DNA from: a virus
Taxonomy: Duplodnaviria > Caudoviricetes
Length of the DNA stretch: 64,000 nt
IMG/VR virus record: IMGVR_UViG_2914150438_000002
Span: 11,170-75,169 of that record
Strand: one strand, 5' to 3'
Under the pieces are notes generated by a model. The model worked only from the letters and a program-made list of their open reading frames with translations, made no database searches and was not told the DNA's origin. Each line of letters begins with the position of its first letter. The stretch's first letter is position 1. Made by a program: the position numbers and the translations under genes. Positions 10,767-38,167 of the stretch are shown piece by piece.

Positions 10767-11287
10767 GCAACTACGAGGACGAATACCAGAAGTGGGTCTC
10801 GAGCTTATCTCCCAAAGAAAGAGCCAAGCTCGTGGCTCAGGGCCTCGACAAGCCGCTTATGGACGACTACAAGCTCGGCACACCTGACTCCGAAGTGGCG
10901 TTTGCGACTATCGGCGAGGAATTCGACTACGACCAGTTCGACAAGGAAGAGCCAATTTCGGAAACTCAGGTTGACGACAAGGCGAAAGCGTATGGTTCGC
11001 TGTTGCTATGTTGGGTGTTTCAACGGCTTCAAAGCAATCATTCCGAAAAGAATTCCACTCTTGAGCGGGATACCTTGCTGTTTGCTCTTGGGCTTGAGAA
11101 CCTTCTCGTTCTGAAAACGCAGACTGCAATCGCCAAGCGGTACGGCATCACTCGCGCGGGCGTATCCTCCAGAGTGAAAGCTTGGCAAAAGCTTCTCAAG
11201 ATAAAGCCGTCAGCCCTTATGAAATCCGAAACGGCGTGCAAGTCTTACCGAAAGGCTCGCCTCGCCAATTTGACAAAGCAACGATAG
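10763..11287 (+). CDS. Hypothetical phage protein with C-terminal HTH
   Basis: TQTAIAKRYGITRAGVSSRVKAW is an HTH pattern; GGAGG ribosome-binding site. Confidence 0.65.
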   Translation: MSNYEDEYQKWVSSLSPKERAKLVAQGLDKPLMDDYKLGTPDSEVAFATIGEEFDYDQFDKEEPISETQVDDKAKAYGSLLLCWVFQRLQSNHSEKNSTLERDTLLFALGLENLLVLKTQTAIAKRYGITRAGVSSRVKAWQKLLKIKPSALMKSETACKSYRKARLANLTKQR

Positions 11288-11289
11288 GT

Positions 11290-11928
11290 ATGGAACAGGA
11301 AACTTCTATCGAAAAATCAGAAATGCCTACCGAGCTTTCCTTGGCGATTGCTCGCATTAACGAACTGCACGCTCAAGCTGAGGAATTAGCCCAAAAAGCA
11401 AAGGAAGTAGCAAGCAAGACAATCGAGATTGCTATCGAATGCGGTAAGCTTCTCATTGAGCAAAAGGCAAAAGTCGGGCACGGGAATTGGGAAAAATGGT
11501 GTAGAGACAATTTAATTTTCGATATACGAACAGCTCAACGCTATATGGGGCTTTTTCGTAAAACTCGTGAAATAGAAAATAGCACCAACTCTGAAACTCT
11601 AAATGATAGTAGCGTTAGTCCAAAAACGACACAAAATCAAAATGTGTCGTTTTTGGAAATAGCCAAACCCAAGAATATTCGCCAAGCTTATATCGCGACA
11701 GGTATTCTGCCCGAAACGCCAAAGCCTGACCCAGAGGATAAAATCGAGCCTCTTGTTGTCCACGTCAGGCACATCGATTTCATTGTGAAGTGGTATCGCG
11801 ACACGGTTGAGAATAAGCCCGCCAAAGACTGGAAGTTCATAGAGCGCGAGGCCCTCATAAACGACCTGACGCCTCTAATGGAAATCTACAACGAGCTGAT
11901 AGAACTCCAAGAGAATTGCAAGCAGTAG
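11290..11928 (+). CDS. DUF3102-domain protein
   Basis: IECGKLLIEQKAKVGHGNWEKWCRDNL...RTAQRYM matches the DUF3102 pattern. Confidence 0.75.
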   Translation: MEQETSIEKSEMPTELSLAIARINELHAQAEELAQKAKEVASKTIEIAIECGKLLIEQKAKVGHGNWEKWCRDNLIFDIRTAQRYMGLFRKTREIENSTNSETLNDSSVSPKTTQNQNVSFLEIAKPKNIRQAYIATGILPETPKPDPEDKIEPLVVHVRHIDFIVKWYRDTVENKPAKDWKFIEREALINDLTPLMEIYNELIELQENCKQ

Positions 11929-11933
11929 GTTTA

Positions 11934-12087
11934 TGCAGGGTGGTCTAACGGTAAGACGCAAGGTTGACTCGCCTTTGCATACGCAAAGCGTCTCGCCCTT
12001 CGGGTCTTTTGCCTTTGGCAAAATCTCATTCGCGCTTTGCTTGAATTCATAACCTTGAGATTGGCGGTTCGAGTCCGCTCCCTGCAC
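11934..12087 (+). tRNA. tRNA-Met(CAT)-like gene (Met/fMet/Ile2 unresolved) interrupted by an 82-nt insertion in the anticodon loop
   Basis: Removing the insert gives a 72-nt cloverleaf: acceptor TGCAGGG/CCCTGCA, D stem GTCT/AGAC, anticodon arm CAAGG-TTCATAA-CCTTG, T arm GGCGG-TTCGAGT-CCGCT. No encoded CCA. Confidence 0.85.
11964..12047. repeat. Multi-hairpin mini-element, copy 1 (inside the tRNA)
   Basis: TT-GACTCGC...TCTCGCCCTTCGGGTC...TCTCATTCGC...TTGAA-TT, shared with copies at 13904 and 28472. Confidence 0.9.
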
Positions 12088-12093
12088 GCATAA

Positions 12094-12417
12094 CTACTTT
12101 TTGACAGCTTTATAAACGTACACAAAATTGCTTTCTACTTTTTCTGCAAAAGATTCTTGTAATGAGGTAGCAATTTTCGCTGGTTTTAAATCATCTGCAT
12201 GTATTGAGAACCCATGTTCTTCTAGTTTCTTTTCTATATTCCTTGCAACTTCTTCATCTGAACACCTCCAATACTTAAAGTGTTTACATGTTATCCCCTT
12301 TTCTCTTTCATGTTCGCTTTTCCTTCTATCGGGATCGTTTGATATTCCAGCATACCAATGATGATTCGTCTGGAAATTAGGATCAATTTGACGTACATAG
12401 TCTATTATTTTTTGCAT
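12094..12417 (-). CDS. AT-rich accessory gene, GIY-YIG-like nuclease fold
   Basis: WYAGISNDPDRRKSEH resembles the GIY-YIG Y-x-G...R motif; opposite orientation and AT-rich relative to the flanking genes. Confidence 0.5.
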   Translation of the reverse strand: MQKIIDYVRQIDPNFQTNHHWYAGISNDPDRRKSEHEREKGITCKHFKYWRCSDEEVARNIEKKLEEHGFSIHADDLKPAKIATSLQESFAEKVESNFVYVYKAVKK

Positions 12418-12576
12418 AATTAACAAACCTTCTAGCTTTTTTAAGATTTTAACCATAGATTCAAGTTTAAAAATTTAACATCTGAATGCAAGTATTTTTT
12501 AAGGAATCTATTAACCAACGACATACGGCAGGGACGTTCGGCAGACCCGTTTCTTCTTGCGAATGGCATTTTTGAA

Positions 12577-12679
12577 AAGTTCCACATAAAAGTATAAATG
12601 AGACCCGCAAACCCTCTATTTTGCTAAGATTGGGGGGCTTTTTTATAAGTGGAACTTTGGTGGAACTTATGTGGAACTT
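12577..12679. promoter_or_regulatory. GTGGAACTT repeats upstream of terS; candidate cos/pac terminase-binding region
   Basis: GTGGAACTT at 12649, 12660 and 12671 (11-bp period) plus an inverted copy at 12577-12585. Confidence 0.6.
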
Positions 12680-12700
12680 TTGACAACTTCCGCTTTTTAT

Positions 12701-13315
12701 ATGGAAGAAAACATCGGACAAAAGATATTAAGCAAAGACCTTGAAAATATAGTAAAAAAGGTCGCTTCGGGAAAGACTCTTACGAGTACGGAACGCGCCA
12801 TAGTGGAAAAGGCTTATGGCCAAAAAGAAGAATCTGTGAAGTATGCCGAAACTACAACCGAGCTTGCGGATATTCTCGGTGTAGCAAGACAGACCATAAA
12901 TAAATGGCGAAAAATAAAAGGTTCTCCCAAACCTTATTCTAACGGCAAGCACAGTGTGTCAAAGTGGCGGGATTTTGTAAGAAAACACGATTTAAAAGAG
13001 TCGGACTCTCCCGAAGACGAGGAGTTAAAGACCCGCAAGCTATTGGCGGAGGTAAAGCAAGCGGAAATCAAACTCAAGGTAATGGAAGGAACGTATGTTG
13101 CCATTGAGAAGGTTCGCGAAGTATGGACTGCCCATATAGGACAAGTACGGCAAATCTTGGAAAGCAGATTTTTAAACGAGCTTCCGCCAATTCTTACAAC
13201 CCTCGATGCCGTACAAATTCGGGAGAAATTGCAGGAGGTACTCGACGAGACTTACAAGGCAATCTCTATCGCCGCAGACTCGATAAAAGAGCCTGTGGAG
13301 GTCGAGGATTCTTAG
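12701..13315 (+). CDS. terS: Terminase small subunit (lambda Nu1-like)
   Basis: wHTH TTTELADILGVARQTINKWRK, then coiled coil RKLLAEVKQAEIKLKVMEGTYV, as in Nu1-type proteins. Confidence 0.75.
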   Translation: MEENIGQKILSKDLENIVKKVASGKTLTSTERAIVEKAYGQKEESVKYAETTTELADILGVARQTINKWRKIKGSPKPYSNGKHSVSKWRDFVRKHDLKESDSPEDEELKTRKLLAEVKQAEIKLKVMEGTYVAIEKVREVWTAHIGQVRQILESRFLNELPPILTTLDAVQIREKLQEVLDETYKAISIAADSIKEPVEVEDS

Positions 13316-13599: not shown

Positions 13600-13600
13600 A

Positions 13601-14356: not shown

Positions 14357-14366
14357 ATTCTGCTAT

Positions 14367-14648: not shown

Positions 14649-14688
14649 ATTTTGTCCTTTAGGTGTTTATCGTTCTTCTATGTCATTG

Positions 14689-14717
14689 ATATTAACACAC
14701 TTGGATAATATTTGCAA
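14689..14717 (-). promoter_or_regulatory. Putative sigma70 promoter for the leftward block
   Basis: Minus-strand TTGCAA-N17-TAATAT. Confidence 0.4.
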
Positions 14718-16302: not shown

Positions 16303-16327
16303 GATTTTGACAAAATAGTCTGTCTAT

Positions 16328-16969
16328 ATGGCAGACGAAAATAAGGCACGAATTTTAGCGGACGGAATTGAAGTATGGTGCGCATACGATAAGCTCGTAA
16401 AAGTTGAAGAACTTATCCCGCACCCAAAAAATCCGAATACGCACCCGCAGAATCAGATTAAAATCCTTGCGCAGAACATACGTTATCACGGTTGGCGACA
16501 CTCGATTGTAGTTTCAAAGCTAAGCGGTTATATTGTGGCGGGGCATGGTCGCTTGGAAGCGGCAAGAGAACTTGGCGTTAGTATAGTGCCGGTCGAATAT
16601 CAAGACTTTGCCACCGAAGATAACGAGCTTGCAGTACTTGTGGGAGACAATCGACTTGCAGAGCTTTCCACGCTCGATTTAAACGGCTTGCAAGATATTA
16701 TAGACGGATTCAAGGAAACAAATTTTGACACAATTCTTGCGGGCTTTGAGCCGACAGACCTTGACGCCCTTTTGGGCGAACAAAAGCCCGATTTTGGGGA
16801 CGAAAAAGAAAAGGAGCTGTCGCAGTCGGAAGTAACGATTCAGGCGGGAAACTACCGCTTCAGAATGTCGCAGGAAGACTTCGGCATTTGGATAGACAAG
16901 CTCAAGCAGGAAGTAGGCTTCGACAAGGAAGCGGTAATCGCTGAAATCCGCAGGAGACTTGCAATATGA
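16328..16969 (+). CDS. ParB/Srx N-terminal domain protein
   Basis: LIPHPKNPNTH...GWRHSIVV...IVAGHGRLEAA...GDNR. Confidence 0.85.
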   Translation: MADENKARILADGIEVWCAYDKLVKVEELIPHPKNPNTHPQNQIKILAQNIRYHGWRHSIVVSKLSGYIVAGHGRLEAARELGVSIVPVEYQDFATEDNELAVLVGDNRLAELSTLDLNGLQDIIDGFKETNFDTILAGFEPTDLDALLGEQKPDFGDEKEKELSQSEVTIQAGNYRFRMSQEDFGIWIDKLKQEVGFDKEAVIAEIRRRLAI

Positions 16970-18880: not shown

Positions 18881-18915
18881 TGATAATTAGTTTTTTTGAC
18901 ACCTTGTCGTCTTGT

Positions 18916-19611
18916 ATGGAATTGCATACGGACGACAGGATTATTTCAAGACAGAGCAACTGGGTGTTCGACGAACACGTCGCGCCCGAATTCGACAAAC
19001 ACGTCAGAAAGAGCGTTCCTAATTATGTACACGTTCAGGAACTGGCTGAAACGTTTTCAGACTGGTTTACATATCCCAATTCCACGGTTATAGACTTTGG
19101 AGCGTCCACAGGAGAGACTCTGCGCCGAATAAAACGCCGCCATTCAAAGGCGTTAAATATCATCGGCTACGACAATTCTCAAGCTATGATAAATCAGGCG
19201 AAAACAAAAGGCGTAGACATCACTTTTGCCGACCTCGAAAAGCCGTTTGTCCTGCCCGATTTTTCCTACGCAGTTTCGCTCTACACTTTGCAATTCCTGC
19301 GTCCATACGCTCGTAATGCCCTATTGAAGCGTATATACCACTGCTTGGAAAACTGCGGTGGAATGTTCGTAGTCGAGAAAGTACTCGGCTCTACCGCACA
19401 AATGCAGGACATCTTACAGCAGCTCTATTGGGAGATGAAAGCAAAGAACGGCTTTAGTTCCGAGCAAATCATAAACAAGGCGAAAGCCCTACGCGGCTGT
19501 ATGTACCCGAAAACCGTTGCCGACAACGAGGCGGAATTTAAATCAATCGGCTTTAATTCCGAAATCGTTTTCAAGGAATCGCAATTCTGCGGTTGGCTTT
19601 TAACGAAATGA
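18916..19611 (+). CDS. CmoA-like class I SAM-dependent enzyme
   Basis: WVFDEHVAPEFDKHVRKSVPNY, DFGASTG, YDNS, YTLQFL and KAKNGFS follow the CmoA pattern. Confidence 0.8.
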   Translation: MELHTDDRIISRQSNWVFDEHVAPEFDKHVRKSVPNYVHVQELAETFSDWFTYPNSTVIDFGASTGETLRRIKRRHSKALNIIGYDNSQAMINQAKTKGVDITFADLEKPFVLPDFSYAVSLYTLQFLRPYARNALLKRIYHCLENCGGMFVVEKVLGSTAQMQDILQQLYWEMKAKNGFSSEQIINKAKALRGCMYPKTVADNEAEFKSIGFNSEIVFKESQFCGWLLTK

Positions 19612-21392: not shown

Positions 21393-21413
21393 TTTGACAT
21401 TCGCCAATTTAAT

Positions 21414-21671
21414 ATGGCGAATTACAACTATAAACGCGGCTATACTGTTGAAGAACTTGAGGTACTTCTTGTACAGGTTAAAACCGAGCGCGAAAAGTAT
21501 CTTCAGTCGGCTTCCGACAGCGGAAGTTCCTATTCCCGCATAGCAGCTGCTGAAATCGAAAAGAAATTTAACGGCATAATGGACGCATTGGAGCTTCTCG
21601 CGCCCGAAAAGTACCAAAAGACAAACCGCAGGATTTCCCTTAGCGGCGTATTCGGAGGGGTTATACAATGA
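21414..21671 (+). CDS. Head-tail joining protein (gpW-like)
   Basis: Small helical ORF between terL and portal, the position of lambda gpW. Confidence 0.55.
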   Translation: MANYNYKRGYTVEELEVLLVQVKTEREKYLQSASDSGSSYSRIAAAEIEKKFNGIMDALELLAPEKYQKTNRRISLSGVFGGVIQ

Positions 21672-23104: not shown

Positions 23105-23918
23105 CATTTTTTTAAACGGAATTTGCAGACCGTGGAATATACACGCAGGTACATTTCTTGCGTTGTCGCTAAGGGTATTGGCTGACGCAAAAGGCGCGGA
23201 CTCGCTTTCTGGGTGGCGCGAGAAGTTTTCGCAGTTCGTGCCACAACGCCAAAGTATGGCAATAGACCCTAACGGGATTGCCCATATCTCCATTCACGGA
23301 ACGCTTTTCAACAAGGAAGCCCCTTATTTTGTGGCGGGCTATGGCGGCACGGATTATGAGGAAGTCCTGCAAGACATAGCGGTGGCATCAAAGGAAGCCA
23401 AAGGGATATTCCTAACGGTTGATTCTGGCGGCGGGCACGCTTGCGGGAATGACAAAGTGGCAAAAGCAATATCGCAATGCCCCAAGCCTGTGTTCGCCTA
23501 TACGGACGGAATGTGCTGCTCGGCGGCATACGCGATAGCAAGCGGAGCGTCGTATATCTGCGCTTCCGCAGACGCCACTGTCGGGAGTATAGGAACTATT
23601 TTGCCGCTAATGGACGTTTCGGGATTGTGGCAAGCATTGGGCGTAAAGCCTGACTACATTACAAACAAGGAAGGCACGCTCAAAACCGCAGGATACCCGC
23701 CGAGCCAAAACGACGACGAAAGAGCCGCTTTACAGGCGGAGACTCAATCGTACTTCGAGCTGTTTAAATCACACGTTCTGGCGCACAGAAACATCGAAAA
23801 AGAGGATATGCGGGGTCAGGCTTTCGTAGGCGCAGAGGCGTTTAGACGGGGGCTTGTTGACGATATTTGCGACAAAAATTCCGCCTACGACAAATTAAGA
23901 ATTTTGACACGGGGATAA
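23091..23918 (+). CDS. Prohead protease, peptidase S49 (gpC/SppA-like)
   Basis: DSGGG, CSAAYAIAS, GSIG and GLVDDI motifs. Confidence 0.9.
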   Translation: MMTNNIFLNGICRPWNIHAGTFLALSLRVLADAKGADSLSGWREKFSQFVPQRQSMAIDPNGIAHISIHGTLFNKEAPYFVAGYGGTDYEEVLQDIAVASKEAKGIFLTVDSGGGHACGNDKVAKAISQCPKPVFAYTDGMCCSAAYAIASGASYICASADATVGSIGTILPLMDVSGLWQALGVKPDYITNKEGTLKTAGYPPSQNDDERAALQAETQSYFELFKSHVLAHRNIEKEDMRGQAFVGAEAFRRGLVDDICDKNSAYDKLRILTRG

Positions 23919-23925
23919 AAAGTAT

Positions 23926-24312
23926 ATGGACGAAACCAATAAAGAAAAAACTCTTGCCGAAGCCATTTCGCAAATCGAAACGCTCACGGCGGACAAAACA
24001 AAGCTCGATTCCGATTTGGCAACCGCTTCTTCGCGCATTGCCGAACTCGAAAGCGAACTTAACGAGACTCGGGAGAAATTGACGGCTCTTGAACAAAAAC
24101 ACCGAGACATCGACAAAGAAGTCTCTTTAAAAGTTGCCGAGATTGCGGCTCAAAGTGGGGTTTCTCCCATTGAGGCAGATGCAAACGGCGGCGAGGAGGA
24201 AAGCCTTGAAGAACTCGCAAAACGCATTGACGAGGCGCAAGGCGTAGAAAAAGCAAAGCTCATTGAATCTAACTACGACCGCATAATGTCGGCGTTGAAA
24301 GGAGTTTACTAA
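23926..24312 (+). CDS. Probable capsid scaffolding protein
   Basis: Acidic coiled-coil ORF between protease and capsid. Confidence 0.55.
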   Translation: MDETNKEKTLAEAISQIETLTADKTKLDSDLATASSRIAELESELNETREKLTALEQKHRDIDKEVSLKVAEIAAQSGVSPIEADANGGEEESLEELAKRIDEAQGVEKAKLIESNYDRIMSALKGVY

Positions 24313-25435: not shown

Positions 25436-25684
25436 ATGGGAGAAAACGACATTTTAAGAATCAGACCCGAACATACGCACGGGGGCGGTTTGCAGATTTG
25501 CGACGACGGCTCCGACGGAACCGTACAAAAGCTCGGCTTCTTCGGAGTTGCGCCCACAGTGCAGAGGGCAAATGCAAATCAGGCCAAGCTTGAAGACTCG
25601 GCGCAACTTGCGCAAGTGATTGTGCTTGTCAACGAGCTTAGAGAAGCCCTCGTAGAAAAAGGACTGATAAAGGGTTCGGCTTAG
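25436..25684 (+). CDS. Small head decoration/fibre-like protein
   Basis: QKLGFFGVAP...VNELREALVEKGLIKG pattern recurrent downstream of capsid genes. Confidence 0.5.
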   Translation: MGENDILRIRPEHTHGGGLQICDDGSDGTVQKLGFFGVAPTVQRANANQAKLEDSAQLAQVIVLVNELREALVEKGLIKGSA

Positions 25685-25707
25685 GATTGGGTTGTTTCGT
25701 ATTCACT

Positions 25708-25740
25708 GGGAGCTTTCGGGAGACTGGAAGCTCCCTTTTT
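25708..25740 (+). terminator. Rho-independent terminator after the head genes
   Basis: GGGAGCTT-N12-AAGCTCCC followed by TTTTT. Confidence 0.75.
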
Positions 25741-25763
25741 ATTATTGATAAGCATTATACTTT

Positions 25764-26927
25764 ATGAAATATATTTTTAGTATGACATTAGAAGAATACA
25801 GAGATAGTTTAATCAAATTAAGACAGAAATTTTTAAAAGAAGAATCTACGCTTGGGACGGCATCGTCTTCATCAGCTTACTCAAAAGTTATTGATGAAAT
25901 CTTAGATTTTATCAATGAAAGAGCTCACCATAGAATATCAGAAATTAGAAATACTAAAATCGAAAATCCCATACGAATTGGAGATTCTTTTGACCTGCGT
26001 GAAAATATAATTAGGAACAATCGGAATGAAACATCCGTAGAAGAAAATTTACCATCGTATATCAAGGAAACATTTAATAGGGAAAAACTCTTAGCTCTAA
26101 TTGATGATGAAATATTTTTATCATCTCCCATAAAAGAAAAAAAAGAATTAGCTATAAGAAAGATCATAGAAGCAAGGAATTTAAATAACGAATTTTCCTA
26201 TGAGTTAGCTAAAATATTCTGTGGAGATAATCCTAATTTTTTATATAGATCGAGCTCAAATATAACTTCTTTTTTTAAAGAAGCTGGCTTTAATTTTGTC
26301 CATGATGGGAGTACACGTTCAAGGTGGATTGAAGGTAAAATAAAAGAAATTTCCGCAAAAGATATATATGGAAAATGTTTCACCAGATTATTCAAGACAC
26401 GAGATTTTGAGGCATTGTCGAAGAATTTAAATAAAAGTTTTGACGATTGTGTAACGATTGCAAAATATGAAATAAAAAATTTATTAGATAAAAGCCTCAC
26501 TTGGGATAATACAATAGATTTCTCAGATGTAATTGGGCTAAATGTAAAAACGGATCTACTGTTTAATAAAAAATCAAAGACAACTGATATTACTTTGAAT
26601 GATTTAATAGATTCTTCAAAAGATTTTTTTGTTCAAGGCGACTATCAAACTGCTATCGAGAAATTATGGGACGCATTAGAAAGATGTAAGACACTATTAG
26701 ACAACGATAAGAAAAAATCGGTAAAAATGATAATTGAAAAATTATCAGGAGAAATGGAATATTCATTCTTTGACAATGAACTTAAAACTTTGACCGATAT
26801 AGGAAACAAATATCAAATTCGTCATTTTGAAAAAGATAAAAAACCGATAGAAGATTTTATGACAAAAGAATATCTTTATTTTAGATTATTATCATTGATA
26901 GATTTCATATTATCAAAAATATCTTAA
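25764..26927 (+). CDS. AT-rich accessory gene, AbiJ-like abortive-infection candidate
   Basis: YRSSSNITSFFKEAGFNFVHDGSTRSRW (AbiJ N-terminal-domain-like) and AIEKLWDALER...GNKYQIRHFE (HEPN-like C-terminus). Confidence 0.6.
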   Translation: MKYIFSMTLEEYRDSLIKLRQKFLKEESTLGTASSSSAYSKVIDEILDFINERAHHRISEIRNTKIENPIRIGDSFDLRENIIRNNRNETSVEENLPSYIKETFNREKLLALIDDEIFLSSPIKEKKELAIRKIIEARNLNNEFSYELAKIFCGDNPNFLYRSSSNITSFFKEAGFNFVHDGSTRSRWIEGKIKEISAKDIYGKCFTRLFKTRDFEALSKNLNKSFDDCVTIAKYEIKNLLDKSLTWDNTIDFSDVIGLNVKTDLLFNKKSKTTDITLNDLIDSSKDFFVQGDYQTAIEKLWDALERCKTLLDNDKKKSVKMIIEKLSGEMEYSFFDNELKTLTDIGNKYQIRHFEKDKKPIEDFMTKEYLYFRLLSLIDFILSKIS

Positions 26928-26949
26928 TTTTGACATAGCCCATATTCCT

Positions 26950-27267
26950 ATGGGCTTTTTTAGTGAAATCAGAACCGCATTAAATGAAATCTTTGCCGAA
27001 TTTTCGCAGGACGTTCAATTTAGAGGCAAGACATACAAGTGCATAATTGGCGAGAATGGTCAGCAGGAAGTAGAACTCGAATCGGGCGGGTTTGTGCCTA
27101 ACGAAACTTTTACCGTAAAGTTCAAAGAAGCGGATTTAGAAGATGAGGCATATCCTTCCATAGGAGAATTGCTCCAATATTCTGGCAGGATTTTTCGCAT
27201 ACATTGGATAAGTACACGCTCAAAACGAGGACAAATAGAAGTATGGGTAAGGAGTGTAGATAAATGA
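26950..27267 (+). CDS. Head-tail adaptor/closure-like protein
   Basis: 105-aa beta-rich ORF at the start of the neck/tail block. Confidence 0.55.
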   Translation: MGFFSEIRTALNEIFAEFSQDVQFRGKTYKCIIGENGQQEVELESGGFVPNETFTVKFKEADLEDEAYPSIGELLQYSGRIFRIHWISTRSKRGQIEVWVRSVDK

Positions 27268-27335: not shown

Positions 27336-28070
27336 ATGAAGTTTGAAGTTATTACCAAGAATTTCGAGGACGCACTTGTACAATACAAAGTAGCTTGCCA
27401 GAGGGATTGGCAATTTGTCGTAAAGCAGCAATCTCGCATTGTTGGAGAAAAGCTAATAAAATTTACGCCGCCAAAGACAGCTTCAATCGGCAAGCGAAAT
27501 GTAGCCCGAGACATAGGCAAGGTATTTGCGGATTTAAGCGGCACAACTTGGGAAGATAAATCACTCAATAAAATGTGGAGAGCGGGCAATTTTGAAGGAG
27601 TAAAAAAGGCACTTGAGAGCCACCCGAACAAATCCGAAATGCCCATATTTAGATATAAGCGAATATTTAAATCTCCCGTAAGAAACATTCATAAAGCGGC
27701 AATAAATAAGAGCGGGAGAGTTCCGAAGAATTGGACTACTCAATATGCTGTTGCGGGGAAAGGAGAGCTTAAAAAGTACACGAGAAAGGCACAACTTCAG
27801 GTGGGAGTTGCCAAATCTGGCTGGCTTGCGGCTCTTACAAAGTTGGGAGGAAAGTCCCAGAGCTTTGTGACTCGCCACGGCACTAAGTATGGTGGATTCG
27901 TAGATGGAAATAGAGGAGATAATCCATTCTTTACTCTCATAAATCGGGTAACGACATTCCCGCAAGGAGGAACACCCATGAGAATTTTAAAGCGGGCCTT
28001 TCGGGTACAGACAAAGGCGATGGAAAACAATATTAAGCGAATTTTAAGCAAGAGAGGAAGAAATTTTTAG
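27336..28070 (+). CDS. Neck/tail completion protein (basic)
   Basis: Lys/Arg-rich 244-aa ORF in the neck position. Confidence 0.55.
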   Translation: MKFEVITKNFEDALVQYKVACQRDWQFVVKQQSRIVGEKLIKFTPPKTASIGKRNVARDIGKVFADLSGTTWEDKSLNKMWRAGNFEGVKKALESHPNKSEMPIFRYKRIFKSPVRNIHKAAINKSGRVPKNWTTQYAVAGKGELKKYTRKAQLQVGVAKSGWLAALTKLGGKSQSFVTRHGTKYGGFVDGNRGDNPFFTLINRVTTFPQGGTPMRILKRAFRVQTKAMENNIKRILSKRGRNF

Positions 28071-28071
28071 C

Positions 28072-28470
28072 ATGAGAAAGGAAATTGAGGATATACTATT
28101 TGAATACCTGCTAAGCGCATTGCCAGAAGCAATGAAGCCGATGCTTGTAAAGGGACACAGCACGGAAGACAGGCATATACCGTACATTTCACTCGATGTT
28201 GGAGATGTAAGACCGTTTTCAGATATGTTGGAATCCGACGGGATATTTGAGTCTGAAGTAAATGTGGCAATAGCGGATTCAGCCCACGATATAAACTATG
28301 ATGCCCAATTTTTGCGCATAGCACAGATACGCAGTATTCTTGGGAATTTTACATTGGATAACGAGAAGTATCGTTGTGAAGGATTGTGGTTTGAGGCGGA
28401 AAACGACGCCAGAGACGATAATAATTTGGGTACAGTCCTAACGTATAAGCTCGTATTTCAAACCTTATGA
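28072..28470 (+). CDS. Tail terminator-like protein
   Basis: Acidic 132-aa ORF immediately before the tail tube gene. Confidence 0.5.
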   Translation: MRKEIEDILFEYLLSALPEAMKPMLVKGHSTEDRHIPYISLDVGDVRPFSDMLESDGIFESEVNVAIADSAHDINYDAQFLRIAQIRSILGNFTLDNEKYRCEGLWFEAENDARDDNNLGTVLTYKLVFQTL

Positions 28471-28471
28471 A

Positions 28472-28554
28472 TTGACTCGCCTTTGCATACGCAAAGCGTC
28501 TCGCCCTTCGGGTCTTTTGCCTTCGCAAAATCTCATTCGCGCTTCGCTTGAATT
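28472..28554. repeat. Multi-hairpin mini-element, copy 2 (intergenic)
   Basis: Near-identical to 11964-12047; lies between the stop at 28470 and the TTGACA motif of the tail tube gene. Confidence 0.9.
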
Positions 28555-28573
28555 TGACACGCCTATATTTTGT

Positions 28574-28939
28574 ATGGCAAACGAAGCATACAAATTAAGA
28601 GGGACAAAGCAACCGATAGCCTTTGGGGTTGAAAAGCTCGAGGGCTACATAGTTGACGCTACGGAAGACACCGTAGAGGGACAGGAGCTTGAGGTGGAAA
28701 ACGAGGACGGCAATGTTGTCGCCCACTTTTCAGGTTTTGGGATAAAGTATAACAGGACGGCGAGCGTCATTCCTTTGTCAGACGCAAGCGCACCGAGTCC
28801 GGGAGATTCTTTCAAAATTGGCGAGAAGTTTGAGTTCATCGTAAAAAGTGTTAAGAAATCTCGAGCAAGAAAAGACGTAGAAAAGTGGGATTTGTCTGGA
28901 ACGTACTATCCAGAGGTTCCGATGGAACCGATTAGCTAA
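28574..28939 (+). CDS. Major tail tube protein (probable)
   Basis: ELEVENEDGNVV...ASVIPL...VKKSRARKDVEKWDLSG; position before chaperone and tape measure. Start reassigned to ATG 28574. Confidence 0.55.
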   Translation: MANEAYKLRGTKQPIAFGVEKLEGYIVDATEDTVEGQELEVENEDGNVVAHFSGFGIKYNRTASVIPLSDASAPSPGDSFKIGEKFEFIVKSVKKSRARKDVEKWDLSGTYYPEVPMEPIS

Positions 28940-29481: not shown

Positions 29482-30943
29482 AATATTAGCTAAAATCGGC
29501 TTAAATTCGGCTGGATTTAAAACAGGGCTTGCGCAATGCAAACTTGCGGCTAACTCCTTTAAAAGTTCGATTGGGGGAATGTTCAAGAACTTGGGCGGTC
29601 AAGTGCTTGGAATGCTTGGGGTATCGGTTGGAATAGCGGGCTTAGGCGCGTTGGCGAAACAGACAATAGACCTTGGCGGTCACGTTGAGGATATGGCGAG
29701 GAATTTGCGCATGGGCAAAAGCGAATTTCAGACGCTTGCTTACGCCGCCAAACTTGCAGGCATGGAAGAAAGCCGCCTCGTAATGACGATGAACAATTTG
29801 AACTTGCGGACTATTGAAGCTTGCGACGGCAATAAAAGTTATCAAGAGTCCTTTAAGCGTCTTGGAATATCACTACAAGAATTTGCAACGCTTTCCCCTG
29901 ATAAAAAGATTGAAGCATTAGGGAACGCTTACAAAAAGTCGGGAGAAAGTCTTACGGCATTAAATGATATTTCGACAATATTGGGTCAAAAGACTGGAGC
30001 GCAAATGCTCGAAGTACTCGATAAAGTATCCACAGAGGGAATGGGAAAGCTTACCCAAGCTTCAATAGAAGCCGGGCACGTTATGGACGAGGAAACACTT
30101 GCCGCCCTTGCGAGGGCCGGAGATGAAATAGATAAGTGGCAAAACCGCATAACTGTAGCCTTTGGCGGATTTTTGGCGGATATGGGAAGTGCTATAGGAA
30201 GGCAAAAGTGGGGCTTAATAATTGGGCAGAAGCTCGCTCAAATGGGAGAATTTATCGAGACTGCGTTTCGTGATATATCCAACTATATTTTAGGCACATT
30301 TAACACCGTAGGACGGTACATAAATGGTCAATTCGGCAATTTTATTACTCCGATTAGAAACGCAATCACCGACTTTATAAGCTATCTCGGTAATGCGCTT
30401 GCTAAGATTGTCGGATATTTTGACTCAGATTGGGAGAGAGCAATAAACAAGGCTGTTAACGCCTTGGATAAGTTGAGGGAGGAATCAAATAAACTCTCCC
30501 AGAAAGATAAGGGAAAGAGCTTTTCAGAAATATTCACAGAGGAGATGGCTACTGCCAAACTTCAGAATGATACTCGCAAGCGTTCAGATTTATGGACCTC
30601 TGGCAGTGTAGATTGGTACAAGACGCAAATAGCCGAAGCCGAAAGACTGCGCGATATTGAAAAGCAAGCCCACATAGAAGCGGAAAATGCCCGCAAAGCA
30701 AAATACGCCGCCGCTGATGCCACACCCGAAATAAAGGACGCAGGGAAAGGCTCGAAGTCAAAATCTAAATCCCAGTATAACGACAGCTCTCTTGCTAAAA
30801 TCGGAGGCGGAGGTCTTACGGCAACCAGATACGATGTAGCAGAAAAGCAGCTCAATGAATCGAAAAAACAATCGAAGCTCTTAACGAAAATTGCTGAAAA
30901 TACCGAAAAGCAAAATTCGCAAAACGAGCTTCTTATGCGGTAA
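29468..30943 (+). CDS. Tail tape measure protein
   Basis: ILAKIGLNSAGFKTGL N-terminus, Ala/Gly-rich helical composition, charged C-terminus. Confidence 0.8.
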   Translation: MASSEILAKIGLNSAGFKTGLAQCKLAANSFKSSIGGMFKNLGGQVLGMLGVSVGIAGLGALAKQTIDLGGHVEDMARNLRMGKSEFQTLAYAAKLAGMEESRLVMTMNNLNLRTIEACDGNKSYQESFKRLGISLQEFATLSPDKKIEALGNAYKKSGESLTALNDISTILGQKTGAQMLEVLDKVSTEGMGKLTQASIEAGHVMDEETLAALARAGDEIDKWQNRITVAFGGFLADMGSAIGRQKWGLIIGQKLAQMGEFIETAFRDISNYILGTFNTVGRYINGQFGNFITPIRNAITDFISYLGNALAKIVGYFDSDWERAINKAVNALDKLREESNKLSQKDKGKSFSEIFTEEMATAKLQNDTRKRSDLWTSGSVDWYKTQIAEAERLRDIEKQAHIEAENARKAKYAAADATPEIKDAGKGSKSKSKSQYNDSSLAKIGGGGLTATRYDVAEKQLNESKKQSKLLTKIAENTEKQNSQNELLMR

Positions 30944-30967
30944 TTTTTGACAATGCGGCTTTCTATA

Positions 30968-31654
30968 ATGAAAGTACGCTTACAAAACGGAGAAGTTTGT
31001 TTTCTTAGGGATTCTGGAGAGAGAACAGTATCGGAGGATTCTGTTGCGACGTGTTCTGCTACTTGGTTTTGTTATCCATATTCGGCGGCAAGCGCAAATT
31101 CGCCTATAATAAACAAGTCCGTTCACCCGATATGGAACGGTTTGTATTGCAAATCGGTTTCCATAAAAAAGTACGGCGATGGGGCTTTAATAACTGCGCA
31201 ATACGAAGGTGCCGAGTCATGGAGTTCAACAAGCGACCAGCATGAAAACACGGTTGAAGTTTCCTGCACAATGCGCGAGGAACCTATTGAAAGCCACCCG
31301 AATTTTGAAAGTTGGGCTGGGACTCCTCAAAAACCTAATTGCGGAATATTCGACGAGGACGGGAAGTTCACAGGGTGGAATTCCAAGACAGAAGGCGGCA
31401 AGATTATGGCGGGGGTAAAGAGCTACCTTGTCCCCTCATATTCGGGAACTGTGAGCTACATTTCAAAGGGGGTGCCGAGTCTCGGCGGCATAGGAAGAAT
31501 AGGCGGTGGAGGAGGATTGCCGTCTGTTGGCGGAATGTACCAATGGATGTGCACAGGGATTTCCTACCAGAGTATGTCTGACGGCAATTATAAGGTTTCG
31601 GAAACTTACCTTTTAAGCGGTCCAAGAGGGTGGAACAGATATATATACAGCTGA
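30968..31654 (+). CDS. Tail tip/baseplate-region protein
   Basis: Position after the tape measure gene; REEPIESHPNF motif. Confidence 0.5.
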   Translation: MKVRLQNGEVCFLRDSGERTVSEDSVATCSATWFCYPYSAASANSPIINKSVHPIWNGLYCKSVSIKKYGDGALITAQYEGAESWSSTSDQHENTVEVSCTMREEPIESHPNFESWAGTPQKPNCGIFDEDGKFTGWNSKTEGGKIMAGVKSYLVPSYSGTVSYISKGVPSLGGIGRIGGGGGLPSVGGMYQWMCTGISYQSMSDGNYKVSETYLLSGPRGWNRYIYS

Positions 31655-31718
31655 CTTTAATCTAAAACTGAAGGGATATTTGCGATAGCAAATCCCGCCT
31701 CTTTAGGAATAATAAAAA

Positions 31719-33794
31719 ATGCTTAAGGATTTAGGAAATCAGAAACTCCCGCGATTTAAGGCGGGCGCACCTTTGTTGGAACAGGTCACTGCAGAGCGAA
31801 TGAACGATATTTGCTCTATGATAGAGGCGTGCCGTTTGCAAAATGGCGTTGGCTACACAATGAATCGTTCAGTTGGCGGAACGACGCTTACCATATTGGA
31901 TATGGCGTCAGCTTCAAAAGTGAAACTTTGGAATATAAACTTTGATGACAACATATCGCTTTCCGCCTTGGAAATTTCCGCAGATGTTCTTGAACATTTG
32001 GAAGATATAGTAGCCGATGTATTGCCAGACACGGAGGAATATCAGAGCAACATTCAGACATATCTAAATCAAGTTATAGGCACTCACAAATCTGGTGAAG
32101 CTGGAACAGCCGACGGCCTTTCAGAGAAAATAAAAGAACTCTTTGAACCTTACAGGGAACAGATAGAAGATGCCATACGGGAATATCTTGAATCTATCGA
32201 CCCCGCCTTTGTGGTGCGAAGCAATATTCAAAGCTATTTTAGTTCACACGACCAAAGTCCACACTCGGGAGATATGATATGGAATGCAAGATATGGTCTT
32301 TGCTATGCCATTTTTAAGGAGGTCAAAAATAGCGATGATACTTCTTTCCCAGAGGAAAATGGACTTTACTCGATATTGTTTACAGTCTCCGATGTCCGCT
32401 ATTTTGCCTTATATCTTGGACCAGTTGAAAACCCGGAAAAATTTTTAGAGACTCTCACTGGATTTGTGGGGAAAACCATAGGCGATGTTGTAGGAAATCT
32501 TACGGAGGGCAATGCTTCCGCCTATCTAAATGCCACTGCCGCCGCCTTAAAGGCACTTTGGGACGATATACCAGAGCCGATTCCCGGTCCTATGGGGCCG
32601 CAAGGTCCTAAAGGAGAGGACGGTAAAGATGGCCAAGATGGGGAAAAGGGAGAAAAAGGCGACAAGGGGGATAAAGGTGATAAAGGCGATACTGGAGACC
32701 AAATAATAGAAAGAGTTGTCGATAGTGGAGCCTATGACGACACCGAATTGCGCAATCTCGTTAAGCAACTTTCGGACTTATTGGATAAACAGACCGAGAT
32801 TATCAATAACAATATCCAAGAAATTGACGGCTTAAAAATCTGGCGAACTGGCACGGAAGGCGAACTTCGTGCTATTGAAATCGAAATCCAGAATATAAAA
32901 ACTCGTTTAAGTGAACTCGCGGGAGAAGACCAACGTATATGGGCGGAAATTTCCAATCTTTGGAACGCAATTCGGAATATTCCCAAAGGCGAAAAAGGAG
33001 ACCAAGGAGAGGTTGGCCCGCAGGGTCCTCAAGGAATTCAAGGACCAAAGGGTGACAAAGGCGACAAGGGGGATACTGGGCCAATGGGACCTCAAGGACC
33101 CGCAGGCGGAAGTGGCGGAGAACAAGGCCCTATGGGACCGCAAGGACCAAAGGGAGATAAAGGTGACAAAGGAGACACTGGCGCACAAGGTCCAATGGGA
33201 CCGCAGGGTCCTCAGGGAATAAAAGGTGACACTGGTCCGCAAGGTCCCCAAGGAATCCAAGGCCCGAAAGGTGATAAAGGAGATGCAGGAGATGTTTCGG
33301 CAATAAGTGCATCGCTTGCTTCTCTTGAAAGTAGAATGGCAAATGCCGAGGGTAGAATTTCCGCAAATGAAACTGCAATTTTGAATATGCGGCAAGATAT
33401 TGACTACGTTAAGCGGACAATAGATTCAGCCGTGAATGTTGCGCTTGTAGATGCCAATGGGAACGTCGCCAATGTCAAAGTATTGCAACACGCGCAAGGC
33501 AATGAACTTATGACGGAAATATACTACTTTGACCCCGTGAGCAATATGATGACAGCTACCAAAGTATTTTCAAATGCCTCAAACGCAGTCGTGACGGATT
33601 GGAAGCCTACCGAAATTCAGTTCGTTCTTCCGAATGGCGAAAGCGCAAGTATTACGATACTGGCAGATAGTTCCACATTGCAGGCTCTCGGAACGGTATT
33701 CCAGTCGGAGGGGTGCGAAGTATGCGAAGGGGGTTCAACCATAGTTAAGTATTTTCTTACGTCCGGCGTGGGGAGTGGCCCTGAGGGGAATTGA
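31719..33794 (+). CDS. Tail protein with collagen-like triple-helix and coiled-coil segments
   Basis: Two Gly-X-Y blocks ([16 protein letters not shown]...). Confidence 0.75.
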
Positions 33795-35094: not shown

Positions 35095-35118
35095 TTTTGA
35101 CAATGTGCGTTTTCTTAT

Positions 35119-37422
35119 ATGACGCTATACATTGACATAGAGAACAAGAAGCTTGTCCAAAGTATTACCTCAGACCGTTCGGTTTCTACTCCCGTTTTTA
35201 TGCAGGGAGACAAGGAACCACTGGAAATCTTCTTATTGGAAAAAGGCGAGGACACAATATTTAGCCCAAAGGTCTTGACTGTCGGCACCGACTTCTTGCG
35301 GGTGGCCATTGCAAGATTTAAGGGTTACCCCAAATCCTTGACCTATGCAAGCGGCTATACGCTCAATCCTAATGGCGGGGCGGAAGTCTTGTTGCCCCTT
35401 AACACAAAGGACATTGAAATAGCCCTCCAAGAACAGGAATATATTTCCGCCTTTTTGGAGGTGGAATATTCCAATACCGACGGCAGGGTTATCACTGTAT
35501 TGCAGACTGCTTGCAGAGTAAAAAATGACCTAATCGACAATGCACCGAGAGTTGAACTCCAAGAGCAGTTTTACGACAAAGTCTATGTTGACGAGGTGTT
35601 TTCAAAGAAGTCCGCAAACCTTTCAGACTTGGCAGACAAGGCGGCTTCGCGCACAAACCTCGGCGTATATTCAAAGTCCGAAACCGATGCTAAAGACGCA
35701 TTGGCCTTAGAAAAGGCGTCCAATCTTTCGGACCTTGCTAATAAAGAGACTGCAAGAAGCAATCTCAGTGTATATTCAAAATCTGAGGTCGATTCAAAGC
35801 ACGAGCTTGACCTAAAAAAGGCTGAAAACCTTTCCGATTTGGCTGATACAGAGCAAGCAAGATCCAATCTCGACGTCCCGCAAGTTTGCGAACTTGCCCC
35901 TTTGGGAAGTTCGGGAATAATCTCTCGGGGTTCTCTTACAATATCGGGTTCATACGGCTATGGGATAGGCGACGACTTTCCCCAAGGTGAAAAGAAATGG
36001 ACGTTTCTAACTACATACCTTTCGAGAGACAAAGGAGGTACATTATTTTCATCTGCATATACAGATTATAATTACTTTTACCCCGCTATTTCAGCAGACG
36101 GGAGTAAATTAGACGCGGGGTATATTTATTCGTACGATAGTGAAACCGGTACCGATAATAGCCGAGAAGTTTTATTCCCTATTTCAAATCCAATTAAATA
36201 TGGAGATAAAATAGCAATGACTTTGGACGACCGAGATTTCAAGCTCTATAAGGGATTGGAGCTTGTCGCATCGGGAACAATACCGGACGAATTGTACATA
36301 TACAGCGCATCGAGCTTCTTGTCTTGGAAGGGATTAAAGAAGGATATTGTGTATTCTTGCTCGATGATTTTACCACTCACATCGGCAGAGGGTACTTCGT
36401 CCAAGTTGAACTATTCCATTGAAGACTATATGAACGGAGAATATCCGCCCAAGACTATTTTGAGTTCAAGATTCTACAATGTAAAAACGACCTTTCTCTC
36501 GACATTCTCATACTCTAACTCGGGGATACAATGTGTTGGCGGCGCAAGTATTGGCAATAAGTCAAACTGCCTAAAAATTTCGCTTAAGGTTTTAACTTAC
36601 AGCTACTCAAGGGAGTACAACCTGCCCGTTAACTCATTTTCGGCAAGTGGAATAAAGTATCGAATAAAATTTAACGTATATCTGCCGACCACAAATCCCA
36701 ATGTCTCTAAACTACAATTAAAACTTGGGAGTTATGCCTTAAGCACAGCAGGTACTATTATATCAAAAACCGATAACATTGATAATAGGGGATATATCCA
36801 ACCCAAAGATGAGTGGCAGGAAGTAGATGTCACTCTAAGAATGAAATATACGGGCACTCCCAAGCTTTGCCTTTTAAAGGGAAGTTCTAGCTATTATAGA
36901 GTAGAAGAAGAAACTACAGATGCTGTTTATGTAAGAGACATATATGCTTGGGGCATGGAAGGAATAGAAGGTCTCTTTTATGGGAACACTGAATGTGACT
37001 TCTGGATAAACAAGGGAGCTTCAAAATATAACTTAACACACTACAATGGGTATTCATTGCCTTGCTACGGTTCAAAGACCTATCTGCATAAAATTAAAAT
37101 ATCTGCATTTAACAACTCGTATTTCGAGTATTTTGATAGCTCCATCGCAGGATTGGCTCTATCGCAAATAATTCTGAAATTCGATGGCAATGTAGCTGAT
37201 ACTTCACAAGAGGAAGATGATAATATCAAGAATATCTTTGTTATGAATCTAAACGGCTATGAAATCTGCCGAGAACAAATACCCGCCGTTAATGCGGGCA
37301 TGGCTTACAATATATATCCGCATAAGGGTATTAACAATTATTTTAGCAGTATAGACGTAATGCCTATGTATAGCTGTTCTTGTGGGGGTACGATAGACTT
37401 AATCTTTACCAAAACAGACTAA
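35119..37422 (+). CDS. Tail fibre/receptor-binding protein
   Basis: Three ~33-aa (A/S)NLSDLAD...R(T/S)NLxV repeats, followed by a divergent Tyr/Ser-rich C-terminal region. Confidence 0.7.
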   Translation: MTLYIDIENKKLVQSITSDRSVSTPVFMQGDKEPLEIFLLEKGEDTIFSPKVLTVGTDFLRVAIARFKGYPKSLTYASGYTLNPNGGAEVLLPLNTKDIEIALQEQEYISAFLEVEYSNTDGRVITVLQTACRVKNDLIDNAPRVELQEQFYDKVYVDEVFSKKSANLSDLADKAASRTNLGVYSKSETDAKDALALEKASNLSDLANKETARSNLSVYSKSEVDSKHELDLKKAENLSDLADTEQARSNLDVPQVCELAPLGSSGIISRGSLTISGSYGYGIGDDFPQGEKKWTFLTTYLSRDKGGTLFSSAYTDYNYFYPAISADGSKLDAGYIYSYDSETGTDNSREVLFPISNPIKYGDKIAMTLDDRDFKLYKGLELVASGTIPDELYIYSASSFLSWKGLKKDIVYSCSMILPLTSAEGTSSKLNYSIEDYMNGEYPPKTILSSRFYNVKTTFLSTFSYSNSGIQCVGGASIGNKSNCLKISLKVLTYSYSREYNLPVNSFSASGIKYRIKFNVYLPTTNPNVSKLQLKLGSYALSTAGTIISKTDNIDNRGYIQPKDEWQEVDVTLRMKYTGTPKLCLLKGSSSYYRVEEETTDAVYVRDIYAWGMEGIEGLFYGNTECDFWINKGASKYNLTHYNGYSLPCYGSKTYLHKIKISAFNNSYFEYFDSSIAGLALSQIILKFDGNVADTSQEEDDNIKNIFVMNLNGYEICREQIPAVNAGMAYNIYPHKGINNYFSSIDVMPMYSCSCGGTIDLIFTKTD

Positions 37423-37426
37423 AATC

Positions 37427-37693
37427 ATGAATAAATATATCACTATAGTAGAACTCGGCGAGGACGCCACCGACTTTGCCCAAATTATCGGTATAAGAGG
37501 TTTTGAAGCTTCACGATATATATGTGATGCCATAGATCCCGAAGGCAATAGAATTCACGGACAAACCTTTACGCTTCCAAAGAGTATTGAAGGTTTACCG
37601 CCCAATAAAGAAGCTATAAAAAGCGATGTGCTTGCCTCTTGGAAATCTGAAGAAGCCAAGCGCAAAAGAACCGAACAAATTGACACGCTGTAG
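37427..37693 (+). CDS. Hypothetical protein (possible fibre chaperone)
   Basis: 88-aa ORF after the fibre gene. Confidence 0.5.
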   Translation: MNKYITIVELGEDATDFAQIIGIRGFEASRYICDAIDPEGNRIHGQTFTLPKSIEGLPPNKEAIKSDVLASWKSEEAKRKRTEQIDTL

Positions 37694-37699
37694 TCTTGT

Positions 37700-38167
37700 A
37701 TGGAACTAATAACATCACTTTGGGATAGCGGTATTTTAGGCGGAATTGCCACTATGATTGTAACGATTGTCGGGCAGTTATCCGCATTGAATACCCAAAA
37801 GTTTACAGCGGTTTTAGAAACGTTACAAAAGCAACAGACTGCCGATGTAGCCGCTCACGATGCCGCCTTTGCTCGTAGCGGAGACGGAGGCGTATTTGTA
37901 AGGAGGACTATGCTTTTTATGGCCTTTGCCATACTCGGTTTATGCCCGTTTATATTCGCCTTCTTTGAGGATATACCAGTGGCTGTCGAAACTCTCGAAC
38001 AGAGCGGCGGCTGGCTCTGGGGATTGATTCCCGAAAAGGAAAGCTTTGCGGTGGCATATGTGAAAGGATTTTACCTCGCCGACGTCTGGAAGGAGCTTAT
38101 GGCAAACCTCATATCGGCGTACATTGGAGCGGGTATCACTCGAAAAGCTTTTAGCATTGGGAAATGA
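37700..38167 (+). CDS. Holin-like membrane protein
   Basis: Two or three hydrophobic segments (ILGGIATMIVTIVG; MLFMAFAILGLCPFIFAFF; LISAYIGAG). Confidence 0.55.
   Translation: MELITSLWDSGILGGIATMIVTIVGQLSALNTQKFTAVLETLQKQQTADVAAHDAAFARSGDGGVFVRRTMLFMAFAILGLCPFIFAFFEDIPVAVETLEQSGGWLWGLIPEKESFAVAYVKGFYLADVWKELMANLISAYIGAGITRKAFSIGK

Follow-up and report, generated by a model that had tools for sequence, protein, structure and literature searches.

In Cluster K mycobacteriophages, the start-associated and extended start-associated sequences (SAS and ESAS) are a short asymmetric, phage-specific word found in 11–19 copies, all in one orientation and immediately 5' of start codons, with a strong bias toward ATG and a function that is unknown (PMC3203893). 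The SAS is nearly absent from the host and is conserved across subclusters before different genes (PMC3203893). Cluster A phages carry stoperators, more than 20 asymmetric sites that lie in short intergenic spaces, are oriented with transcription and are read by a monomeric helix-turn-helix (HTH) protein of ~180 amino acids (aa) (PMC9283540). Here we describe an asymmetric word, TTGACA, that stands 14–16 nucleotides (nt) before the ATG of 11 genes in a 64,000-nt stretch of Caudoviricetes DNA (positions 11,170 to 75,169 of IMG/VR record IMGVR_UViG_2914150438_000002; the whole stretch analysed is called the window). We refer to this word, in the form TTGACW when relatives are included, as the box. 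A literature search returned no description of this element.

A start-linked box in a prophage of gut Verrucomicrobia

The window corresponds to G000:C1:956905-1020904 within a 2.70-Mb genome of 56% GC, and its segment from ~3.4 to ~38.4 kb is a prophage of 43–44% GC. An integrase gene is followed there by a replication block (AAA_24, exonuclease, helicase, primase) and then by packaging, head, tail and lysis genes. The same genome holds a sister prophage, ~95% identical, at C1 ~1.478–1.521 Mb. Named relatives of the prophage genes come from gut Opitutales metagenome-assembled genomes and from 'Opitutia bacterium KCR 482', a candidate cultured host (type strain) with a TerL of 90% identity. 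The carrier is a temperate phage from gut Verrucomicrobia; it and its uncultured relatives, which form a deep group, set the box 13–16 nt ahead of the ATG of each gene without a ribosome-binding site.

All 11 boxes of the window lie at gene junctions on the coding (plus) strand, and the junctions with a box are nearly the sole non-overlapping ones in the prophage. Rechecking bore out the hexamer positions and the spacings to the ATG (14, 15, 15, 14, 14, 16, 14, 14, 15, 16 and 14 nt, in order) given in a first-pass annotation of the window. It likewise bore out the reading TTTGACA at 10 of the 11 sites (the exception starts at 37680) and the T at position -1 of the ATG, also at 10 of 11 (the exception starts at 30947). 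Measured from the first base of the hexamer to the end of the ATG, box 1 (11270..11292, N14) precedes the DUF3102 gene and overlaps the last codons (N-L-T) of the gene for a 174-aa HTH protein. Box 2 (12680..12703, N15), before terS, heads a rightward gene that follows an opposite-strand gene. Box 3 (16307..16330, N15) precedes a ParB-like gene, with a hairpin, GTCTG/CAGAC, across the ATG, and box 4 (18896..18918, N14) precedes a methyltransferase gene and has the strongest hairpin (-19.9 kcal/mol), its spacer co-varying with codons 6–8 in orthologs. An 85-aa gene 5' of the portal gene follows box 5 (21394..21416, N14; hairpin TTCGCCA/TGGCGAA), and a 128-aa gene 5' of the major head protein gene follows box 6 (23904..23928, N16). 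At box 7 (26930..26952, N14), before a 105-aa gene, a terminator-type hairpin at 26937-26956 followed by T6 straddles the ATG. Box 8 (28554..28576, N14) precedes a 121-aa gene, has the hairpin TTTGTATG/CATACAAA and carries a mini-element of ~80 nt inserted immediately 5' of it. The remaining boxes precede a 228-aa tail gene (box 9, 30947..30970, N15), a 767-aa fibre gene (box 10, 35097..35121, N16) and a 155-aa gene at the right end of the prophage (box 11, 37680..37702, N14). Family matches support the names DUF3102, terS, ParB, methyltransferase and fibre that had been given to these genes from sequence; those called gpW-like, scaffold, adaptor, tube, tail-tip and holin gave no informative family match.

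The hexamer as such is not enriched in the window (30 copies observed against 30.2 expected). Its placement is strongly biased: the plus strand of the prophage contains 11 instances of TTGACA-N13-16-ATG, whereas 300 dinucleotide shuffles gave 0.66 on average and never more than 3. An ATG lies at 13–16 nt from 51% of the prophage copies of TTGACA and from 3.6% of the copies in the rest of the 2.7-Mb genome. Host genes show no box-to-ATG peak at 13–16 nt, and the enrichment that had been proposed for testing against shuffled sequence and host genes held in both comparisons. Genome-wide, TTGACW precedes an ATG that opens an open reading frame (ORF) at 41 sites, 21 of which lie in the two sister prophages (11 + 10). 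Two other terminase-bearing regions of the same host genome, 50 kb each, served as a negative control and contain no start-linked box; among the TerL homologs listed, nearly all were at least 89% identical. The box is phage-specific.

Boxes occupy equivalent junctions in IMG/VR relatives of 76–100% portal identity and in Opitutales prophages reached through homologs of the 174-aa ORF (47–65% identity), and the independent gene callers of the source databases picked the same ATGs in relatives. Over 42 distinct sites of this window clade the spacing is 13 nt at 6 sites, 14 at 21, 15 at 10 and 16 at 5, and the profile reads T-T-T, TTGACA, a variable spacer, a T-rich stretch from -6 to -3, a purine at -2, T at -1, ATG and G at +4. 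A distant branch of the HTH family, with only ~23% identity to the window protein, yielded 80 viral loci of ~60% GC. There, the distance from TTGAC[AT] to ORF-opening ATGs peaks at 13 (19 sites), 14 (36), 15 (65) and 16 nt (13), versus ~1 site for each other distance. The T-run before the box and the T at -1 are features of the window clade only; in the distant clade the box follows a G, and the stretch leading up to the ATG is G-rich. Since the flanks differ wholly between the clades while the box and its distance stay, the invariant core is TTGACW plus its distance to the ATG. The label of middle or late genes proved too narrow for the genes behind the box, since in one relative a box precedes the first rightward gene adjoining the integrase.

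In one relative, two tandem boxes 41 nt apart (L012:14312-14375) precede the ParB-like gene, and only the second is correctly spaced from the ATG. At L064:12156-13088, in the distant clade, a box precedes a gene for an NAD-dependent epimerase/dehydratase, which indicates that auxiliary genes also stand under the box. Within the window, a TTGATA variant at 25745-25766 lies 13 nt before the ATG of an AT-rich inserted gene of 387 aa (25764-26927). This variant, preceded by a T-run, could represent either a degenerate box or a -35 element of the host type.

Initiation signals, hairpins and insertions at box junctions

The first-pass annotation held that most box genes lack a Shine-Dalgarno (SD) sequence and that early replication genes carry GGAGG, and duplex energies agree on both counts. 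Pairing with the anti-SD sequence gave -0.3 to +0.7 kcal/mol at 9 of the 11 box genes, with -1.4/-1.7 and -5.7 kcal/mol at the remaining two, compared with -6 to -15.5 kcal/mol at most genes without a box. Box sites of the distant clade likewise lack an SD sequence, and in those loci ATG opens 88% of box genes versus 65% of SD-led starts. The 3' end of the host 16S rRNA has a normal anti-SD sequence. Pairing of the box itself with rRNA was considered and dropped: neither the complement of the box nor that of the ATG-proximal box is present in the host 16S rRNA.

Letter for letter, the box matches the -35 consensus of the host, whose tRNA and rRNA promoters consist of an A-tract, cTTGACA, ~17 nt and TAnnnT. 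Many host ORFs have a promoter placed directly on the ATG, with distance peaks at 29–33 nt (-35 box to ATG) and 6–7 nt (TAnnnT to ATG). The whole genome contains 57 strict cases of TTGnnn-N16-18-TAnnnT-N5-8-ATG, in which A is favoured at +4. Such promoters identify the host as a habitual user of leaderless mRNA. The phage box does not share their geometry, in which the -10 element ends 5–8 nt and the -35 element ~29–33 nt before the ATG. Judged as a canonical sigma-70 promoter, it fits in its -35 part (exact TTGACA at 11 of 11 sites) and fails in its -10 part (TAnnnT 16–18 nt downstream). A promoter scan found a -10 hexamer at 16–18 nt at 0 of the 11 sites, host promoters being canonical, and the earlier claim that the boxes are not ordinary sigma-70 promoters stands.

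Other known elements were compared with the box and rejected. The Bacteroidetes-type -7 element, TAnnTTTG, would account for the T-run and TTG; the TA is not conserved, and host promoters are canonical. A sigma-54 -12 box lacks the upstream GG element and stands at the wrong distance, on inspection of the 42-site profile. GGA loops of the CsrA type and MazF ACA sites were dropped by eye, their features not being general.

RNA folds from the spacer to codon 8 are markedly more stable when a box is present, averaging -7.7 kcal/mol (z -2.0) compared with -3.1 kcal/mol (z -0.1) for the remaining, SD-led starts (p 5e-5). Start hairpins of the distant clade are weaker yet present (p 0.01). In orthologs the spacer co-varies with the codons that it pairs with: TTGTCGTC/GACGACA in the window, CTTTATCTGTAT/ATACAGATAAAG in L007 and TTCAGCT/AGCTGAA in L006. 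The register and the loop (4–17 nt) of these hairpins are variable, and the box-to-ATG distance is tight. Within the folds, the bases of the ATG are paired in 64% of positions and those of the box in 38%. Sense and antisense folds, compared as a test for an RNA origin of the hairpins, did not differ significantly in stability (p 0.08), and Rfam gave no match at box sites.

Of 174 box sites, 6 have an intrinsic terminator that adjoins the box or spans the ATG; among 2138 control starts the number is 4. They end 3–7 nt 5' of the box at terS in L013 and at the adaptor-position gene in L001, L003 and L006; in these four loci, the ~23-nt motif alone separates a terminator from the ATG of an essential gene. 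The ATG-straddling terminators are that at 26937-26956 of the window and one in L004. Among the hairpins of the box sites, a GC-rich stem followed by a T-run is confined to 26930 and its orthologs. In addition, a strong intrinsic terminator on the plus strand (25708..25735) follows the head genes of the window, and in relatives without the inserted 387-aa gene its T-run leads straight into box 7.

Homology with the sister prophage breaks exactly at boxes, at 26928, 28549, 30948 and 35094/5. The sister prophage carries four accessory insertions at its box junctions (C1:1470001-1525000, reverse strand: 25515-26203, 27684-28385, 30786-32211 and 36341-38107). Opposite-strand ORFs of 416, 480 and 188 aa lie there immediately 5' of boxes, each box remaining attached to the gene that follows it. 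One of the insertions is a same-strand pair of genes, for 95 and 112 aa, that resembles a toxin-antitoxin system.

Three direct repeats of GTGGAACTT with an 11-nt period (12649-12679) end exactly at the terS box; they are not kept in more distant relatives, and could be a site for a regulator or a packaging protein. A phage tRNA(CAT) gene (11934..12087, plus strand) is located behind DUF3102. The window copy is interrupted by an insert of ~82 nt, and the gene is intact in relatives (L010:11181-11252, L012:11128-11200, L013:11130-11201, L062:2098-2170 and L092:16305-16381). A 1:72 mismatch, a trait of bacterial initiator tRNA, is present in four of the six copies (L062 begins CGCGGGG); the anticodon arm of the L013 copy is GGGCUCAUAACCC, and G33, which is unusual, is seen in two copies. 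These are partial hallmarks of an initiator tRNA, and the phage tRNA(CAT) may be linked to SD-independent initiation. In the loci examined, no box stands between DUF3102 and the tRNA(CAT) of this family. A TTGACT lies 23 nt 5' of one distant tRNA, and the promoter of one host tRNA is of the normal kind.

A candidate reader and the interpretation of the box

The candidate reader of the box is the 174-aa HTH protein encoded at 10763..11287 on the plus strand, by the last SD-led early gene, which overlaps the gene upstream. Its near-invariant C-terminal N-L-T is encoded by AAT TTG ACA, the codons within which box 1 lies. The box and the family of this protein co-occur, and the HTH protein family is all that the distant high-GC clade shares. 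Of the two HTH proteins that had been named as possible activators, the one at 10763 is this candidate, and the one at 3988 was not linked to the box. A profile search found 457 representative clusters in the family, none of them annotated in Pfam, and no phage in the reference collection encodes the protein. For the window protein there was no Pfam, PHROG or NCBIfam family and no Sigma70_r4 or Sigma70_r4_2 match above the gathering score, and distant members gave only sub-threshold HTH matches. The AlphaFold model is all-helical (pLDDT 74), and its best fold matches, over residues ~62–147, are AlgU (Z 6.0), WhiG (5.5), SigC region 4 (5.0) and sigmaE region 4 bound to -35 DNA (5.0), all middling scores from VIA-align; Foldseek E values exceeded 0.1. 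Alignment with host sigma region 4 sequences by hhalign (62%, E 7e-5, 27 columns) places the HTH in register with region 4.2. No part resembling region 2 is evident in the protein. From the model and the alignment we class it as a sigma-4.2-type HTH protein, short of a proven sigma domain. The 5' end of the HTH gene is overlapped by an 82-aa ORF, inside which lies a long imperfect inverted repeat of up to 20 pairs (10549-10596).

Our favoured interpretation is a tentative one, based on sequence comparison: the box may well be the upstream element of a compact, phage-specific, factor-dependent promoter that starts at or next to the ATG and gives leaderless mRNA. The first-pass annotation had proposed a non-canonical expression signal, either an activator-dependent promoter yielding leaderless mRNA or a UUUGACA translational element. 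The signal is indeed non-canonical and phage-specific; the former option is the one favoured here, and the latter is kept as a rival. The promoter is preferred because the box equals the host -35 consensus, because an HTH protein similar to sigma region 4.2 co-occurs with it, because terminators abut it and opposite-strand insertions lie upstream of it, and because the host uses leaderless mRNA. The invariance of the box across clades, its absence from the two control regions of the host, the missing SD sequences and ATG preference of box genes, and the box of terS behind an opposite-strand gene count for it too. That the word equals the -35 consensus and is accompanied by a sigma-4.2-type protein suggests that it is read on DNA. 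Likewise, the tight box-to-ATG distance, the variable hairpin register and the frequent pairing of ATG-proximal bases fit recognition of linear duplex DNA better than that of folded RNA.

If the box is such a promoter element, the ~11 boxes would split the packaging, virion and lysis region into units of one to four genes. A helix-turn-helix of the sigma region 4.2 type would read TTGACW on double-stranded DNA. The likeliest reader would be the 174-aa protein of the phage itself, the last product of the early operon, with host sigma region 4 as a possible alternative or partner. The reader would position host RNA polymerase, and transcription would start at or a few bases from the A of the ATG, 13–16 nt downstream of the box. 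The first gene of a unit would be translated leaderless, and the following genes would use their own SD sequences. Pairing of the spacer with the first codons into a hairpin would be confined to RNA started further upstream, where it would hide the SD-less ATG or, given a U-run, terminate the upstream transcript. Because the hairpin would block the ATG in upstream-started RNA, translation of the first gene of each unit would depend on box-initiated RNA. Where a terminator straddles the ATG, a transcript initiated there would lack the 5' arm and would thus escape termination.

Several observations weigh against this promoter. No -10 element is seen in the position profiles of 42 and 116 sites, and the spacer of the high-GC clade is GC-rich, including G at -4 and -3, and is therefore poorly suited to melting. 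Assignment of the candidate reader to sigma region 4 is weak (Z 5–6, no Pfam family, 27 aligned columns). The sister prophage keeps 10 boxes though its copy of the HTH gene is split in two, with an internal TGA (G000:C1:1515001-1515506); this prophage is probably recently defective. In the relative with a box before the first rightward gene, that box lies upstream of the candidate activator gene. Finally, the hairpins co-vary with codons and frequently start immediately after the box. This implies selection on RNA (or single-stranded DNA) that contains the whole spacer, which a purely leaderless transcript leaves unexplained, and it keeps the translational-element option alive.

That option, an RNA-level operator for SD-independent translation, is in our estimate unlikely though a serious contender. 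UUGACW, single-stranded and located directly 5' of an AUG-occluding hairpin on long late transcripts, would then be recognised by a phage protein or serve as a ribosome standby site, and binding could open or present the AUG, as Mu Com does at mom, or repress translation, as T4 RegA does at start regions. Such an operator would suit start hairpins that are far more stable than those at SD-led starts and that co-vary with codons, a distance measured to the start codon, genes that lack an SD sequence and a preference for AUG. A GC-rich spacer also suits a stem better than a melted promoter, and a tRNA(CAT) that partly shows initiator hallmarks is encoded by these phages. However, an exact -35 consensus would be a coincidence in an RNA site, the 16S rRNA holds no complement of the box, and a candidate RNA-binding protein was not identified. 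The fixed box-ATG distance contrasts with the varying register and loop of the hairpin, the box is itself paired in over a third of positions, and sense folds are not significantly stabler than antisense ones. Moreover, terminators that abut the box or straddle the ATG would cut the supposed long transcript, and among the late genes opposite-strand insertions are tolerated only immediately 5' of boxes.

Boxes could also act on transcripts already under way. An elongation-factor loading or pause site of the nut, put or ops kind, at which a recruited phage factor would confer terminator resistance and/or couple ribosomes to the SD-less gene, as RfaH does at ops, is improbable. A linear conserved box followed by a hairpin does recall the boxA-boxB of nut sites, terminators occur within the late region, and box genes lack an SD sequence. 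In the lambda Q-engaged paused complex, moreover, sigma region 4 uses a -35-like TTGACT element, which counts for this explanation. Known systems of this type nevertheless have one or two sites per operon rather than one per 2.5 kb, and nothing in them calls for constant spacing from the ATG. Unlike a lambda-type nut boxB, the hairpins change in stem, loop and register from site to site and from ortholog to ortholog, and no NusG/RfaH-like or N/Q-like gene was recognised. Equally poor is the case for stoperator-like sites, at which a monomeric phage repressor would block elongation in the lysogen, as described in Cluster A mycobacteriophages (PMC9283540), and we think this a shade more improbable still. 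In its favour, L5-type stoperators include the complement of TTGACA, the ~11 asymmetric sites lie at gene junctions in a single orientation, and the phage encodes an HTH protein of ~175 aa. It would, however, leave the 13–16-nt distance to the ATG, the missing SD sequences, the ATG preference and the hairpins unexplained. The HTH gene stands at the end of the SD-led early operon, overlapping the gene upstream, and not in an immunity position. The sole match of its product to the TipsytheTRex repressor has an E value of 0.49 and falls largely outside the repressor HTH by the published residue ranges (PMC9283540). Least probable is that the boxes are recombination boundaries, short conserved junctions that promote module exchange between related phages. 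Homology blocks of the sister prophage do break at boxes, where insertions are also located, but an identity of 6–9 bp is too short for homologous exchange, and the strand bias, ATG spacing, SD-less status and hairpins would go unexplained. Since box junctions are nearly the sole non-overlapping junctions, insertions would gather there anyway.

Significance and comparison with known systems

If the box is a promoter, a -35-type word at a distance of only ~15 bp would suffice, with no -10 element, to set the exact start of bacterial RNA polymerase. The absence of a -10 element at every site would make the design new, and the geometry of the box matches none of the promoter classes compared. The reader would then represent a new family of small phage transcription factors, with its 457 representative clusters. 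One can go further and picture a -10-less promoter class in which a sigma-region-4-type phage protein reads the -35 word ~17 bp upstream and host polymerase starts exactly at the AUG, the hairpins and the initiator-like tRNA(CAT) completing a self-contained leaderless system in a deep uncultured lineage of Verrucomicrobia and high-GC hosts; this fuller picture is rather unlikely to hold as a whole. If the box acts on RNA, it would be a new SD-independent initiation signal. Either way, gene starts and transcription units of a very abundant group of gut verrucomicrobial prophages could be annotated by a simple rule. Genetic tools are lacking for Opitutales-type bacteria, and the box, its spacing and the factor are portable parts with which expression could be controlled in them. 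The box also offers a testable case for the long-standing question of the role of phage start-associated sequences.

Box genes resemble genes behind host leaderless promoters in lacking an SD sequence, in preferring ATG and in having the start codon as the expected transcription start. They differ in that the host promoters have a -10 element 6–7 nt and a -35 element 29–33 nt before the ATG, whereas the box has no -10 element and its -35-type word stands ~16 nt closer. Leaderless mRNA promoters of the Thermus phages phiYS40 and P23-45 and lambda PRM likewise have a -10 hexamer 6–7 nt before the ATG. Factor-dependent phage promoters include those with P1 Lpa sites, centred near -22, those with the T4 MotA box, used with AsiA, and the T4 gp55 late promoters. 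As in these systems, many copies of a phage-specific element would replace or displace a promoter element and be read with a phage factor made earlier. To our knowledge, a -10-type element is kept in all three; the -35 consensus itself is in none of them the element used at about -17, and their positions are not tied to the start codon.

The Mu Com/mom system has a single-stranded conserved site 5' of a start-occluding hairpin, with one site per phage and a zinc-finger reader. The box resembles it as a conserved site directly 5' of a start-codon hairpin. It differs from it in being present in many copies and in being a -35 consensus, and no zinc-finger protein was seen in the phage.

Like the Cluster A stoperators, the box is asymmetric, lies in short intergenic spaces and is oriented with transcription (PMC9283540). 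In contrast, stoperators silence elongation in lysogens; no fixed spacing to a start codon is described for them, and they mark neither SD-less genes nor hairpins (PMC9283540).

The closest described phenomenon is the SAS/ESAS of Cluster K, which shares with the box an asymmetric, phage-specific, ATG-biased word before many starts (PMC3203893). The SAS is, however, a 13-bp word with the SD core AGGAG, located 3–7 bp from the start in the non-structural half of the genome (PMC3203893). The box is instead a -35 consensus without an SD sequence, 13–16 nt from the ATG, mainly before packaging, virion and lysis genes and accompanied by a start-codon hairpin.

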